NCBI GenBank assembly: GCA_963977015.1
Contig: CAXBMO010000007.1
Span: 64,001 to 128,000 of the forward strand
DNA: 64,000 nucleotides
Direction: 5' to 3'
From: an uncultured bacterium
GTDB taxonomy: Bacteria > Verrucomicrobiota > Verrucomicrobiia > Verrucomicrobiales > DEV007
Below are positions 6,388-26,417 of this stretch, in pieces. The first letter of the stretch is position 1. Each line of letters begins with the position of its first letter. Below the pieces are notes generated by a model. That model did not search any database. It worked only from the letters and a program-made list of their open reading frames with translations, and had not been told where the DNA came from. The position numbers and the translations under genes were made by a program.

Positions 6388-7227
6388 ATGACAACCATCT
6401 ACCGGGGAAAGCGGGATTACATCATTGAGTCCGAAGGCGCGCAATACCAAACCGAGGACTTTTCGTTTGATGCGCTGTTTCAAGCCGCGAATCCGGCTGA
6501 CTGGCTTGCTGAGAAGCTCTCAAACCTTCAGCCGAATCAAGAAAACGCAGAACTCGCACCCCAAGCCTGGCTCCCTCCGCTTGAGTCCCAGGAAATCTGG
6601 GCGGCCGGGGTCACCTATTTTCGGAGCCGGACGGCCCGAATGGAAGAAGCGGAAACCGCAGGTGGTGACATCTTTTATGACAAGGTTTACGACGCGGAAC
6701 GCCCGGAACTCTTCTTCAAGGCAACCCCAAAACGAGCCCGGGGACACCTGGCTCCCATCCGAATTCGAACGGACTCAACCTGGGATGTTCCCGAACCCGA
6801 ACTGACCCTTGCGATCAATTCGAGCGGCCAAATCTTTGGATTCACGATCGGAAACGACGTCAGTTCGCGCTCGATTGAAGGCGAAAACCCGCTTTATCTT
6901 CCTCAGGCCAAAGTTTACCGCGGTTCCTGTTCGGTTGGCCCGGGACTGGTCGTCGGAAAAGAAGCAGTTTCGCCAGAAACGGTCATTCATCTCGAGATTC
7001 GGCGAAATGGAGAGGTCGGTTTCCAGGGAGAAACCCAAGTCAATCAAATCAAACGGGGACTCGATGAACTCGCCGGATTTCTCTTTCTCGAAAACGAATT
7101 TCCGGATGGCGCGTTGTTAATGACCGGAACAGGAATCGTTCCCGACAACGACTTCACCCTGCAATCGGGAGATGTCGTCCGAATCTCGATCGAAGGACTT
7201 GGCGTGCTCGAAAACCAGGTCGAATGA
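6388..7227 (+). CDS. Fumarylacetoacetate hydrolase family protein (2-keto-3-deoxy-pentonate dehydratase-like)
   Basis: [50 protein letters not shown]. Confidence 0.88.
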
Positions 7228-7248
7228 GCGGATATTCTGATTGGGAGA

Positions 7249-7557
7249 TTAAATCCCAAGCCCCGGAGGCAGTCCGCCCGTCACCTTGCCCATTTCGTCC
7301 GCCGCCATCTCTTTGCCCTGATCAATTGCCTGTTTCACACCACTCAAAATCAGATCTTCGAGCATTTCCACATCCTCGGGATCGACAACGGCAGGATCAA
7401 TCTTGATTGACAGGACTTCGCCTGCGCCATTGGCCTTTACGGTAATTTTTCCCCCGCCAACACTGGCTTCCACCTCACGGTCGGCCAGCTCCGCCTGAGT
7501 TTTTTGCAGATCCTTTTGCATCTTCTGCATCTGTTTCATCATCTTGTTGATGTTCAT
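7249..7557 (-). CDS. ybaB: YbaB/EbfC nucleoid-associated protein
   Basis: MMKQMQKMQ, GGGKITV, DPEDVEMLEDLI; conserved position after dnaX. Confidence 0.95.
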   Translation of the reverse strand: MNINKMMKQMQKMQKDLQKTQAELADREVEASVGGGKITVKANGAGEVLSIKIDPAVVDPEDVEMLEDLILSGVKQAIDQGKEMAADEMGKVTGGLPPGLGI

Positions 7558-7598
7558 GGCGGTATCTCTTTGGAAGTAATCTGAAAAGGTGAAATTAG

Positions 7599-7817
7599 TT
7601 AGGCAACTTGAGCCTCGAAAATGCGCAGCGCCTCAGAAATCAGCGGGTCCTGAAAAAATGGGTTGGCAGACTCCATTGGAAGTTCGAGCTGGATGTCTTC
7701 CTCCTGATTCAGTTGCAGGGCAAGCGATTGTGGCTTTCCCAAAGGATCCGAATCAAAGGTAATCACATGCTGATCGGTAGCTTCGTTGAGTTGCTGGTGA
7801 GCGAGAAAAAGTTTCAT
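7599..7817 (-). CDS. 72-aa small protein with a DnaX(tau) C-terminal-like helix and a clamp-binding-like motif
   Basis: Fills the dnaX-ybaB gap on the operon strand. DPLISEALRIFEAQV vs DnaX DPLIQEALRIFEAEV with synonymous codon divergence; QLELPM motif. Confidence 0.8.
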   Translation of the reverse strand: MKLFLAHQQLNEATDQHVITFDSDPLGKPQSLALQLNQEEDIQLELPMESANPFFQDPLISEALRIFEAQVA

Positions 7818-7835
7818 GACCGGGTCGTTGCTAGG

Positions 7836-9725
7836 TTACTTGGTGTTTTCCACCTCAGCTTCAAATATACGAAGTGCTTCCTGAATTAAAGGATCATTCT
7901 TAAATTTCTGCTCATCAACCGGAGGTTCAGCTTCAACAATCTCGGGCTCCGTTGGTTCCTCGGGGGCAGGTTCCGGAGTTCGTTCCTTCTTGGGCGAAGA
8001 CTTTGGCTCCTGAATTCTCGGTGAAGCGGCAACGGCTTCGACGGCGGGCTCTTCGATTTCAGGAAGCTCGGGTTCGGGAATCGAGTCTCGAATTTCGCAC
8101 TGCAAAGTCATTTGGCTGCCACCATGCGCTTCGAGCAGTTCTTCGACGAACGTTTTGCTTTTCTCCCGCATCATCGAATCTCTGGCAAACCGGTTCCCCG
8201 GAGAGAAGCCAATGACGAAATTGCGTCCCGATTGCTCCAGAAATTGGACTCCTTTCGTCCACCCGGACATCAGCGGCCGCTGCGCGTCGATGGTTGCGGA
8301 TACCGCTTTCCAGAGGGCTTCACCACTGAGGTCTCCGGTCGGCACCGGGCCGGCCTTTCTTTCAGCCACGGGTTCGGGCTCGGGTTCGGATTCAGCTTTT
8401 GATGGTTTGGGCGGGTCCGGCTCAAAAGGCGGCGCATCCTCCATTGCCTCAGACTCAGCTGGTCCTTCAATTTTGACCTTCCCATTCGGCTTCTCCGTGG
8501 CCGAAGCCGGCGGACTATCGCTTACTGACTCCTTTTTTTTTACGGGGGCTTTTGAAGTTGGCGCAGCTTCCGTCGGCATTTGGGCGGCGCCATCACTGGC
8601 TTGGTGCAGCATTCCAATCACATCACTGATCGTCATCTCTGCCATGATTTGCATGGCCTTGATCACACCAATCTCAAGATGAAGCCGTTTGTTGGGCGCC
8701 CACTTCATCCTCGTTTCCGTCTCGGCAAAATGGTCGATCAAATTGAGCAATCTTTCCGGCACGGCCTGCTTGGTCTGGGCACGGATTCGATCTGCAATCT
8801 CCGGAGCCAGGTCGGCAAATTCGTTCTTCGGATCAACCAGGGAGATGAGAAGATTCCGCAAATAGCCAATCCAATCGGCCAACAACCGCGAAAGATCCTT
8901 CCCCTTTTCACTCTCGGCGTGAATCGATTCCAACGCGATGGCTGACTTCTTCGTGAGAATGGCGTCGGTCAGGTTGGCAATCGTTTCCAGCGAAGTGAAC
9001 CCGAAGATGTCGAGAACGTTCTCCTCCTTGATGTGCTTCCCGCAAAAGGCAACCAACTGGTCGAGCATGGACTGGGCATCGCGCATCCCGCCATCCGCAC
9101 CTTTGGCAATCGCGTAAGCCGCATTTTCATCGAGCTTGATCTTTTCCTTCTTGGCAATCAACAGAAGATGATCGGCAATGATCTGGGTCGGAATTCTTCG
9201 GAGATCGAAGCGCTGACACCGACTGATGATCGTCGGCAAAATTTTGTTGGGTTCCGTCGTCGCAAAGATGAACTTCACATGCGCAGGAGGTTCTTCGAGC
9301 GTCTTCAACAAAGCGTTGAACGCCGCAGTCGAGAGCATGTGAACCTCGTCAATGTAGTAGATCTTAAATTTGCTGCTGGAAGGCGCGAACTTCACGGTTT
9401 CGCGCAATTCGCGAACCTGCTCGACGCCATTGTTGGAGGCTCCGTCAATTTCCAGAACGTCCAGACTGATCCCCTCCGCGATTTCGCGGCAGAGCTCATG
9501 GTCCGGATCAAAATCCACCTTCGGTCCGTCCGGACAATTCAAGGCCTTCGCGAAAATTCGAGCCGTGGACGTTTTTCCCGTTCCCCGTGGACCGACAAAA
9601 AGATAGGCATGCGCCAAGCGGTCCTGCTCGATCGCGTTTCGCAGCGTACGTACGACGTGATCCTGACCCAGGACGTCGTCAAAGGTCTGGGGGCGATATT
9701 TTCGGGCAAAAACCTGATAACTCAC
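7836..9725 (-). CDS. dnaX: DNA polymerase III subunit tau/gamma
   Basis: ARKYRPQTF, Walker A GPRGTGKT, EIDGASN, IDEVHML, NALLKTLEEPP, SRC motif. Confidence 0.97.
   Translation of the reverse strand: MSYQVFARKYRPQTFDDVLGQDHVVRTLRNAIEQDRLAHAYLFVGPRGTGKTSTARIFAKALNCPDGPKVDFDPDHELCREIAEGISLDVLEIDGASNNGVEQVRELRETVKFAPSSSKFKIYYIDEVHMLSTAAFNALLKTLEEPPAHVKFIFATTEPNKILPTIISRCQRFDLRRIPTQIIADHLLLIAKKEKIKLDENAAYAIAKGADGGMRDAQSMLDQLVAFCGKHIKEENVLDIFGFTSLETIANLTDAILTKKSAIALESIHAESEKGKDLSRLLADWIGYLRNLLISLVDPKNEFADLAPEIADRIRAQTKQAVPERLLNLIDHFAETETRMKWAPNKRLHLEIGVIKAMQIMAEMTISDVIGMLHQASDGAAQMPTEAAPTSKAPVKKKESVSDSPPASATEKPNGKVKIEGPAESEAMEDAPPFEPDPPKPSKAESEPEPEPVAERKAGPVPTGDLSGEALWKAVSATIDAQRPLMSGWTKGVQFLEQSGRNFVIGFSPGNRFARDSMMREKSKTFVEELLEAHGGSQMTLQCEIRDSIPEPELPEIEEPAVEAVAASPRIQEPKSSPKKERTPEPAPEEPTEPEIVEAEPPVDEQKFKNDPLIQEALRIFEAEVENTK
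8494..8541 (-). other. Candidate dnaX frameshift / transcriptional slippage site
   Basis: Coding strand GTA AAA AAA AAG (A9 run 8533-8541). Stops follow quickly in both shifted frames. Downstream UUCG hairpin at 8494-8514. Confidence 0.65.
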
Positions 9726-9907
9726 AATATGGGCACTCTATGGCGGGATGACTGCTTGAAAACCGCTTTTTTTGGCTTTGGCAGGATTCATGCAATTCTT
9801 CGAAACCGTCGCCTACGTGGTGAACGGGGTTGGGTCCGGTCGTCGCGAATTGCGAGAAAAGATAATCAATCGGACTAAATTCCCGTCAAACCCCAAGAAA
9901 ACCGCCC

Positions 9908-11089
9908 ATGACACCTGATCTGAAAGTCCTCGATTCCATCCGGTCACGAGAACACACCATGATTCAGCAGTTGAAGGATTGGGTTTCCATCAATTCAGGT
10001 TCCGAGAACCGGGAAGGCTTGGAGTCGATGCGAAACAAACTGGAATCCGCCATCAAAGAGATTCCGGCGACGACGCTCGAACCGATTCCCCTCCCCAATG
10101 GAACCGCCATTCAGGCGATTTGTCGGCCAGAAGCCCCGAGACGGGTCTTTTTGAGTGGCCACATGGACACCGTCTATCCCCTCGACCATCCGTTTCAGAG
10201 TTGGACGATGATCGAAGAGAATCGACTTCAGGGCCCTGGTTCTGCGGACATGAAAGGTGGCCTTCTCGTGATGATTGAGGCGTTGAAAGGCTTCGAATTG
10301 TCGCCCAATGCCAAGAAGTTGGGCTGGGAGATCCTGATTTCGACGGATGAGGAGATTGGTTCGCCGGGTTCCTCCCCTTTTCTCGAAGAGGCCGCCCGGC
10401 GTTGTGAAATTGGGCTGGTTTTTGAGCCGGCGATCCAGGGAAGTGGCGACCTCTCCCGGCAGCGACTCGGAAGCGCCACGTTTCACGTTACCGCCACGGG
10501 CAAAGCGGCGCACGCCGGCCGCGACTTTGCATCGGGACGCAATGCGATCGCTGGATTGAGCGCAGCCATCACCAGTTTGCACGAACTCAATCAGTTGGAC
10601 GACGTCACCTGTAACATTGGGAGGATCGAAGGCGGCGGCCCGCTCAATGTGGTTCCGGAAGTCGCGAAAGCCTCCTTCAACTTCCGAGCCGCCGATCCTC
10701 AATTGGTCGAAAACGCGCTCCAATCGGTCACGAAGCAGGTTCGAGCCGAATACGATGTCGCCTTGCATTGGGAAGGTGGATTCACCCGCCAACCCAAACT
10801 CGTGACACCTGCGATCGAAGAACTGTTTTCACGCTATCAAGCGTGTGCGGAAGCACTTGGCTTTCAGCTGAACTGGCGAAACACTGGCGGTTGTTGCGAC
10901 GGGAACAACCTCGCCGCAGCCGGATTGCCAAACCTCGACAACCTGGGTGTCAGGGGTGGCAACATCCACAGTTCCGAAGAGTTTGTCGATCTTGATAGCC
11001 TTGTTGAGAGAACGCAGCTAACGGCGCTTTTTCTTACGGATTACGCAGAATCGTCTGCGCTCGATCCGGTCCAACGCCAATCATCGTGA
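9908..11089 (+). CDS. M20-family metallo-hydrolase (glutamate carboxypeptidase/ArgE-like)
   Basis: GHMDTV, GPGSADMKGG, DEEIGS, FEP, GKAAHAG, GNIHS. Confidence 0.88.
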   Translation: MTPDLKVLDSIRSREHTMIQQLKDWVSINSGSENREGLESMRNKLESAIKEIPATTLEPIPLPNGTAIQAICRPEAPRRVFLSGHMDTVYPLDHPFQSWTMIEENRLQGPGSADMKGGLLVMIEALKGFELSPNAKKLGWEILISTDEEIGSPGSSPFLEEAARRCEIGLVFEPAIQGSGDLSRQRLGSATFHVTATGKAAHAGRDFASGRNAIAGLSAAITSLHELNQLDDVTCNIGRIEGGGPLNVVPEVAKASFNFRAADPQLVENALQSVTKQVRAEYDVALHWEGGFTRQPKLVTPAIEELFSRYQACAEALGFQLNWRNTGGCCDGNNLAAAGLPNLDNLGVRGGNIHSSEEFVDLDSLVERTQLTALFLTDYAESSALDPVQRQSS

Positions 11090-25844: not shown

Positions 25845-26363
25845 CTAGAGCCTGATTTCCAATCCCATTTTTCTCATCTCCAGCAAGGCCTCCGCATTGC
25901 CAATCGCATCATCGACCGGATGGTGGGTGTGCTTCGTTTTTCGCAAATGCTTGAAGTTTTGCGAGCAGTTTTTCACCATGCCCTTGTAAATCGAGCCCAA
26001 GTTGGAAGACGAATGACCAAACGGGTTCTTCTGCAGAAAGTGGTGGAAGTACCAGTTCACAAATTGCCAATCAAACCCGTTGTTATCGCTGATGAACATC
26101 GGCTGACCTCCCTGATTGGATTCGGCAATCCAGTCCCGAAACTGTTCCATCACCCGCTTCGGATTTTCAAAGCTCTCCGTCTCTCCCCGCGAAAACCCAC
26201 TCACCGCGAGTGCTTCAGGAATCCAGTACTCCGAGATGGGAGAAAGCTGCCCGTAAAACGTGCACCCCAGGCTCGCATCCACACGGACCGCGCCAAGACA
26301 GACCATCGAGTAGTCTCCCGGGATCGGCCCATCCGCCTCAATATCGACCATAAAATAACTCAT
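25845..26363 (-). CDS. DEDDh 3'-5' exo(ribo)nuclease
   Basis: MVDIEADGP, NGFDW, HHPVDDA. Confidence 0.85.
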   Translation of the reverse strand: MSYFMVDIEADGPIPGDYSMVCLGAVRVDASLGCTFYGQLSPISEYWIPEALAVSGFSRGETESFENPKRVMEQFRDWIAESNQGGQPMFISDNNGFDWQFVNWYFHHFLQKNPFGHSSSNLGSIYKGMVKNCSQNFKHLRKTKHTHHPVDDAIGNAEALLEMRKMGLEIRL

Positions 26364-26417
26364 CGTCAAAAGACGCAGCAGATTTGATCGGAATTCAACC
26401 CGATGCTGCTTTCGGGC

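Follow-up and report, generated by a model that had tools for sequence, protein, structure and literature searches.

A genus-restricted gene between dnaX and ybaB of marine Verrucomicrobiales encodes a paralogue of the C-terminal tail of tau

The locus

The window analysed here is a stretch of 64,000 nucleotides (GenBank assembly GCA_963977015.1, contig CAXBMO010000007.1, positions 64,001 to 128,000 of the forward strand) from the 6.9 Mb, 95%-complete genome of an uncultured marine member of the Verrucomicrobiales (G000). Its minus strand carries dnaX, which encodes tau, and ybaB, and between them lies a small gene, nicknamed mini-tau, whose 72-residue product ends in a copy of tau's own C-terminal tail. 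Judged from sequence, the small protein is a new, genus-restricted paralogue of this tail, and its binding to the polymerase DnaE1 is plausible. The two genes and the two tail copies are placed as follows in the window.

7836..9725, minus strand: dnaX (tau), 629 aa, an open reading frame (ORF) with Pfam domains PF13177, PF22608 and PF12169
7851..7904, minus strand: tau tail motif FKNDPLIQEALRIFEAEV, the parent copy, located by BLASTP, with D, P, L, A and F unchanged across 15 tau C-termini from the order
7599..7817, minus strand: small gene (mini-tau), 72 aa and stop, identified by ORF calling, orthologues and selection counts
7605..7658, minus strand: tail copy FFQDPLISEALRIFEAQV, residues 54-71 of the small protein, predicted to be helical, with a single Ala between it and the stop

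The tail copy and its parent

The small ORF ends in FFQDPLISEALRIFEAQVA and DnaX in FKNDPLIQEALRIFEAEVENTK. The two proteins share 14 of 18 residues by BLASTP (E 1e-6 in a single comparison), and the ORF alignment matches the C-termini of 16 tau proteins in hhalign with E 1.4e-10 over 51 columns and a probability of 96.9%. When the whole 6.9-Mb genome is searched with the small ORF by tblastn, the dnaX tail is the sole other match below E 0.01 (E 0.004). In the tau tail and in the tail of the small protein alike, the hydrophobic face (P, L, I, A, L, F, A) does not vary.

An initial annotation of the window had drawn attention to a 15-residue core, at 7605-7649 in the ORF copy and 7851-7895 in the DnaX copy, in which the copies agree at 13 of 15 residues and encode 11 of those 13 with different codons. 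The coordinates are exact, and a recount reproduces both numbers and the codon list. The only codons common to both copies are ATT (Ile) and GCT (Ala), and nucleotide identity over the core is 28/45. By Nei-Gojobori counting, 13.5 synonymous differences (Sd) fall on 10.8 synonymous sites, which is saturated, and the proportion of nonsynonymous differences (pN) is 0.10. The two copies also differ in G+C at third codon positions (GC3), which is 3/15 in the dnaX copy vs 9/15 in the ORF copy.

Conservation and selection

Among 41 related genomes searched, full-length stop-free matches occur in all four of the genus (G000, G003, G001, and G002) and in none of the 37 others. The ORF lies between dnaX and ybaB in each of the four, has a length of 71-73 aa, and is 79% (G003), 54% (G001), and 46% (G002) identical to the G000 copy. 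With P0002 and P0003 from a protein collection, six distinct sequences of the ORF are available, all terminating at the same residue. Contigs of a run from a second study span the whole ORF without indels.

In the six genome pairs, the proportion of synonymous differences (pS) in the small ORF is 0.66-0.75 and pN is 0.14-0.37 (Nei-Gojobori), compared with 0.66-0.84 and 0.02-0.12 for ybaB. Differences are most frequent at codon position 3, then 1, then 2, in all six pairs. The sense frame is open in all four genomes and no antisense frame is open in all of them; an antisense ORF at 7608..7889 (plus strand) was ruled out as a candidate, antisense frames being closed in G003 and G002. Because pS is saturated while pN is low, differences follow the order 3 > 1 > 2, and only the sense frame stays open, these sequence counts identify the small ORF as a real gene, most readily explained as translated in this frame and held by purifying selection. 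The constraint is looser than that on ybaB, and loosest in the N-terminal half. The proposal that the copy is old, translated, and selected is thus upheld by orthologues in four of four genomes, by saturated pS with low pN, and by the position bias, and the ORF, which might have been absent or broken in close relatives, is unbroken in all four genomes of the genus.

Operon context

The remaining features of the locus are the following.

7818..7835, minus strand: spacer of 18 nt from the dnaX stop (TAA) to the ATG of the small ORF, in the dnaX frame in G000
7249..7557, minus strand: ybaB/ebfC, 102 aa, Pfam PF02575, E 1.9e-33
9862..9889, minus strand: sigma-70-like promoter match upstream of dnaX, 9 of 12 positions, a consensus match only

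The small ORF is separated from dnaX by 18 nt and from ybaB by 41 nt, and in G000 it starts in the same frame as dnaX, 18 nt past the TAA. No Shine-Dalgarno-like sequence is present in the 18-nt spacer, and ybaB likewise has none before it. No terminator-like site is found on the minus strand between dnaX, the small ORF, and ybaB, and an Rfam scan of 6800-10400 returns only a snoRNA match at chance level (E 0.12). The three genes are likely an operon, and with these short spacers and no terminator-like site on the minus strand, the expression shared with dnaX that had been assumed at first is likely. All 16 sequencing runs listed in a search for RNA reads are DNA.

The 3' end of dnaX has features of its own. 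Its last ~30 codons (window 7839..7930, minus strand; the same stretch in loci L002, L003, and L004) show unusual synonymous-site conservation and AT-rich third positions. Where the amino acid is conserved, three genomes use the same codon at 14 of 26 sites there vs 10 of 48 further upstream, and GC3 is 0.27-0.40 vs 0.47-0.80 upstream. G000 and G003 are identical over the last 22 dnaX codons, the stop, and into the spacer, and have a pS of 0.75 in the adjoining ORF. The conserved AT-rich end may serve the small gene as an unstructured leader for translation initiation. Some relatives that have no small gene also show a drop in GC3 at the end of dnaX, though a smaller one.

Origin by partial duplication

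The similarity to tau extends beyond the tail itself, and tblastn places ORF residues 29-71 on tau 584-625 with 42% identity. Because both this and the hhalign alignment map the ORF to the tau C-terminus, at least ~43 codons of the dnaX 3' end were copied. The first 28 residues of the ORF have no source detectable by hhalign or tblastn. The N-terminal 53 residues were also compared with tau domain V, and homology between the two was rejected: the hhalign P is 0.57, and no tblastn match falls below E 1, whether the target is dnaX in six frames or the whole genome. The best hhalign path for this N-terminal part is collinear (FLAHQQL..VITF on WTKGVQF..FVIGF) and not significant.

Outside the genus, 10 of the 12 relatives inspected have dnaX followed directly by ybaB, with a gap of 5-73 nt; for this reason dnaX-ybaB is taken as the ancestral order, in which the small gene would be a genus-specific insertion of about 270 nt. 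The comparison with tau points to birth by tandem duplication of the last ~43 dnaX codons, at least, into the dnaX-ybaB spacer before the genus radiated. Over the 18 positions of the tail in four species, identities number 16-18 between tau tails, 11-17 between ORF tails, and 11-14 between tau and ORF tails. Because tau tails and ORF tails form separate groups, the duplication evidently predates the split of the species, and recent gene conversion between the copies is not indicated.

Taxonomic range

A profile of the four sequences matches 43 of the 134 genomes of the family at E <= 0.01. A full-length match together with a second match is found only in the four genomes of the genus and in none of the 130 further ones. 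The other 39 matching genomes have one match each, at profile positions about 31-71 and in open frames of 155-711 aa, and these are taken to be the tails of the genomes' own DnaX; seven of the 39 lie in frames of 155-275 aa, which were not inspected and may be dnaX fragments at contig ends. As tau's own tail is detected in only 43 of the 134 family genomes at this threshold, the sensitivity of the profile is limited, and diverged, independent tail copies may exist in other taxa.

None of 400 further genomes of the phylum has a full-length match. A scan of GTDB species genomes with two motif patterns gave confirmed cases only in the three known relatives, a metagenome collection gave one identical contig, and 68 pattern matches in a collection of viral contigs yielded no confirmed case. 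In a profile search of 1.84 billion protein representatives, five proteins reach E <= 0.001, and only the gene's own 72-aa cluster is convincing among them (E 9e-33). The other four representatives, of 703-1925 aa, are weak, and their best stretch, given for three of the four, lies at profile positions 13-45, outside the tail. The wide occurrence across Verrucomicrobiota that might have been anticipated is therefore not supported by the family, phylum, GTDB, and protein searches, which gave a single genus.

Pfam assigns the 72-aa protein to no family at E up to 1, and the clamp-loader domains PF13177, PF22608, and PF12169 are absent from it; it is a fragment paralogue and not a member of the DnaX family. 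The nearest clusters in the ESM Atlas are hypothetical proteins that share at most 156 of 256 features, and the Atlas model has a predicted local distance difference test score (pLDDT) of 0.49. The literature searched describes no stand-alone tau-tail protein of this kind, in agreement with the initial statement that no known replisome component resembles it.

Anatomy of the small protein

Two conserved segments precede the tail.

7779..7817, minus strand: conserved N-terminal helix M(K/N)L(F/Y)(L/I)A.Q.L, residues 1-13, from the alignment of six sequences; helix in the AlphaFold2 (AF2) model, low confidence
7674..7691, minus strand: QLELPM, residues 43-48, candidate beta-clamp-binding motif; QLELP[MI] in six of six sequences, predicted coil

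The AF2 model built on the six-sequence alignment has a mean pLDDT of 59, which is low confidence. It contains helices at residues 2-13 and 58-71, the latter being the best-scored block (pLDDT 76), and coil at residues 14-57 (pLDDT 52-64). Positions invariant in the six sequences include L3, A6, Q8, and L10 in the N-terminal helix; Q43-L-E-L-P47, followed by M or I; and D57-P-L-I, E62-A-L-R, F67, A69, and A72 at the C-terminus. F21, G27, P29, and E39 are further invariant positions. The tail motif stops one residue short of the stop codon in all six. The small protein is thus predicted to be mostly disordered, with three conserved short segments: the N-terminal helix, QLELP[MI], and the amphipathic C-terminal helix.

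The tail as a polymerase-binding segment

In E. coli, tau's final 18 residues are needed for binding the polymerase subunit alpha, and L627P and F631I weaken this binding most (PMC1888804, PMC1888800). Residues 622-643 of E. coli tau bind the polymerase tail, and the tau-binding domain comprises alpha 1079-1160 (PMC4703070). Reported affinities for alpha are 0.13-0.26 nM for the C-terminal construct tauC16 and 3.8 uM for the isolated last 32 residues (PMC1888804). Expression of tauC16 is lethal in E. coli, presumably through sequestration of alpha (PMC1888804).

When 15 tau C-termini of the order are combined in a profile, it aligns collinearly with E. coli tau 499-643 over 94 columns (hhalign E 0.0073, probability 5%). 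The alignment puts NDPLIQEALRIFEAEVENTK on ADNNIQTLRRFFDAELDEES (E. coli tau 620-639), and F631 of E. coli tau falls on the Phe that is invariant in both paralogues. In all 16 relatives inspected the tail stands at the extreme C-terminus of tau, with a hydrophobic pattern as in the E. coli alpha-binding segment. Correspondence of the tau tail of this order to that segment is suggested by these comparisons, though not strongly.

Pfam matches and an alignment of 16 relatives give the architecture of tau in these bacteria as clamp-loader domains I-III, a Pro/Glu-rich linker, a DnaA-domain-I-like C-terminal domain, a second Pro/Glu-rich linker of ~55 aa, and the tail. In this phylum the tail is set off from the folded C-terminal domain by the ~55-residue linker, while in E. 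coli it follows directly after the domain; by inference only, this suggests that the tail acts here more as a free-standing motif. The folded domain corresponds to tau residues 473-560 (window 7839..8348, minus strand), and a PDB profile search with the C-terminal 170 aa of tau matches it to DnaA domain I (4tps_B, E 1.2e-4; 8btg_A, E 3.2e-4). No tau chain was matched in this profile search, and as a single sequence the tau C-terminus matched nothing in the PDB. Polyubiquitin entries ranked above the DnaA entries in the profile search were discounted, each repeat alone having E about 70.

Two DnaE proteins are to be considered as partners. Aligned with E. coli alpha 960-1160, DnaE1 (1179 aa) shows homology over alpha 960-1153, a stretch that takes in the oligonucleotide/oligosaccharide-binding (OB) fold and the tau-binding domain (E 4.9e-16). 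The DnaE2-like protein (1060 aa) stops 20 residues past its OB fold, and nothing in it resembles the final 115 residues of DnaE1; a tau-binding domain is absent. For this reason the DnaE2-like protein is an unlikely client of the small protein, and the thought that the latter serves a second DnaE paralogue finds no footing in a protein that lacks a counterpart of the tau-binding domain. Complex prediction for the small protein with DnaE1 955-1179 gives scores of 0.31, 0.37, and 0.29 around a mark of 0.32, with 0.00 in each of three controls, and speaks neither for nor against binding.

The candidate clamp-binding motif

QLELP[MI] is invariant in the six sequences and lies within an otherwise variable stretch predicted as coil. 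The clamp-binding consensus is QL[S/D]LF or QxxLF, and the Hda peptide QLSLPL binds tightly (PMC12309361). In the 3.27 million residues of ATG-initiated ORFs of at least 100 aa in G000, the pattern QL[SDE]LP[LMIF] occurs three times and the looser QL.L.[LMIF] 256 times, which corresponds to a chance of about 0.5% in 72 aa. On this sequence likeness, binding of QLELP[MI] to the hydrophobic cleft of the beta clamp is put forward tentatively and is somewhat doubtful. Neither this candidate nor the origin by partial duplication of ~43 dnaX codons was part of the initial annotation.

Similar motifs occur elsewhere in the genome. RNase HII (208 aa; G000:C11:64756-65379, minus strand, locus L043) has QLSLPF 10 residues from its C-terminus, a likely clamp-binding hexapeptide and one of the three occurrences of QL[SDE]LP[LMIF]. 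A Glu/Leu/Phe/Val dehydrogenase (G000:C1:563344-564522, plus strand, locus L042) ends in SQLDLFG, a perfect clamp consensus that is probably due to chance. Besides the canonical DnaN at C1:143840-144934, there is a second beta-clamp-like protein, a 522-aa frame (G000:C14:8971-10536, minus strand, locus L049) that weakly matches the N-terminal and central DNA_pol3_beta domains and has, at its C-terminus, a long basic extension. No canonical epsilon turned up in G000 with the RNase_T (DnaQ-type) model, which detects matches in 10 of 10 bacterial control genomes and gave one match here at 23.5 bits against a cut-off of 24; this match is a 174-aa ORF (window 25845..26369, minus strand) whose tail has no clamp-like motif.

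Likeness to known systems

The E. coli tau tail (about 620-643; tauC16 and tauCpep32) is likewise C-terminal and amphipathic and follows the pattern D..IQ..LR.F..AE(L/V), and in the cited reports it is unstructured alone and needed for binding the tau-binding domain of polymerase III alpha (PMC1888804, PMC1888800). The small protein differs from it in being a separate gene product without clamp-loader domains I-III and without globular domain V, a large source of affinity in E. coli; in the E. coli work cited, the free form tauC16 is a laboratory construct only, lethal on expression.

The C-terminal segment of E. coli epsilon (DnaQ) consists of a clamp motif, a short flexible linker, and a polymerase-binding C-terminal helix, and gives a second, indirect contact between polymerase and clamp (PMC4703070). 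The small protein has a matching plan, with QLELP[MI], a linker of 8-9 residues, and a predicted helix of the polymerase-binding type. Unlike epsilon, it has no exonuclease domain and no sequence kinship with that protein, and its helix would bind the alpha tail and not the PHP domain.

The frameshift product gamma of E. coli dnaX is also a second product of a dnaX locus, by which clamp loading and polymerase binding are uncoupled (PMC4756838). In gamma the loader part is retained and the polymerase-binding end lost, whereas the small protein is the converse and comes from its own start codon in a duplicated gene, with no recoding. The N-terminal clamp-binding hexapeptide QLSLPL of Hda is matched by QLELP[MI] at four of six positions (Q, L, L, and P), with a hydrophobic residue at position 6 (PMC12309361). 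Position 3 is Glu instead of Ser, and Hda is an AAA+ protein acting on DnaA; the motif alone is common to the two.

Proposed function and alternatives

The interpretation towards which we lean, from the sequence comparisons, is that the small protein is a tau-tail mimic occupying the tau-binding domain of DnaE1. Its C-terminal helix would dock where tau does in E. coli, on the tau-binding domain that closes DnaE1, and the small protein would occupy polymerase molecules instead of tau or in competition with it. Should the E. coli affinities hold here, micromolar binding would be expected of the tail by itself, which would make the small protein a mild competitor and no poison. Anchored to the clamp as well, it would be steered to polymerase already sitting on a clamp, and the outcome would be either stabilisation of the polymerase on the clamp or its release from tau. 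With QLELP[MI] on the clamp and the tail on DnaE1, the polymerase tail would be tied to the clamp, as by the E. coli epsilon C-terminal segment. In the fullest form of this scheme, the small protein would be a replisome accessory subunit made of short linear motifs only, with its tail on DnaE1 and QLELP[MI] in the second cleft of the beta dimer, stapling polymerase to clamp, and with the N-terminal helix adding a third contact; this elaboration is unlikely.

Several points weigh against a DnaE1-binding, clamp-anchored mimic. The link to the E. coli alpha-binding tail is statistically weak, E 0.0073 being the value for one comparison and the probability only 5%. A bare 32-residue tail binds 30,000-fold more weakly in E. 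coli (3.8 uM vs 0.13 nM, PMC1888804), so that a small protein without domain V may, by analogy, bind poorly; and as free tauC16 is lethal there (PMC1888804), one would expect a strong competitor in nature to do harm. The gene occurs in a single genus only, so the replisome plan of the phylum can do without it. The clamp-motif pattern was picked after the sequence had been seen, QLELP[MI] aligns to IVEAEPPV of tau in tblastn, and it could be the first half of a helix-loop-helix, an extended polymerase-binding module, instead of a clamp motif. Constraint on the ORF is also modest: its pN is 3-7 times that of ybaB, its N-terminal half is loosely held (pN up to 0.48), and in a near-identical strain the two listed ORF differences are nonsynonymous (Q9K and L26S) while the three in ybaB are synonymous. 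Q9K and L26S fall at variable or loosely conserved positions, and the numbers are small and compatible with a fast-evolving N-terminal half.

The best-surviving alternative is that the small protein is real and uses its tail for a partner other than DnaE1 or in a role unrelated to the polymerase, for example with another partner of the tau tail or with YbaB. The role of the tail in Verrucomicrobiota is indeed extrapolated from E. coli through a weak alignment, and the N-terminal helix with F21, G27, and P29 has no known counterpart and belongs to no Pfam family. This explanation is nevertheless rather unlikely, given that the tail keeps the extreme C-terminus of tau in 16 of 16 relatives with the hydrophobic pattern of the E. 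coli alpha-binding segment, and that a matching tau-binding domain is retained in DnaE1.

A separate protein would not be made at all if readthrough of the dnaX TAA, or a frameshift, extended tau by about 78 residues and gave it a second tail. The ORF does continue the dnaX frame without an intervening stop in G000, G003, and G002, and the spacer of G001 (locus L003, 1470..1500), which is 31 nt long where those of the other three genomes are 18 nt, contains a run of eight T. In G001, however, the ATG lies 31 nt past the stop and out of frame, and the dnaX frame closes before the tail, so that frame continuity holds in only three of the four genomes; in-frame placement has a one-in-three chance per independent lineage. 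Conservation starts exactly at the Met (M-K/N-L-F/Y), while the spacer varies in length and sequence among the four genomes. Because G001 is out of frame and conservation begins at the Met, this extension of tau is very improbable.

A decaying remnant of the duplication or a functionless chance ORF, to which the narrow range, the fast N-terminal half (pN up to 0.48), and the two nonsynonymous strain-level changes might point, is just as improbable and is rejected on selection and conservation, the frame being intact at 71-73 aa in four of four species with saturated synonymous sites, pN/pS well below 1 in six of six pairs, three segments invariant, and the end residue the same in six of six sequences.

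Significance

It is through the tail of tau that the clamp loader is physically joined to the replicative polymerase, and here a bacterial lineage keeps a free tau tail as a separate gene within the dnaX operon, under purifying selection. The locus offers a clean case of the birth of a new gene, in which duplication released an interaction motif from an essential gene and a further motif was apparently gained. If the small protein binds DnaE1, it would be a natural trans-acting modulator of polymerase-loader coupling, and, if true, this would give a handle on polymerase release, on polymerase exchange, and on the number of polymerases per replisome.

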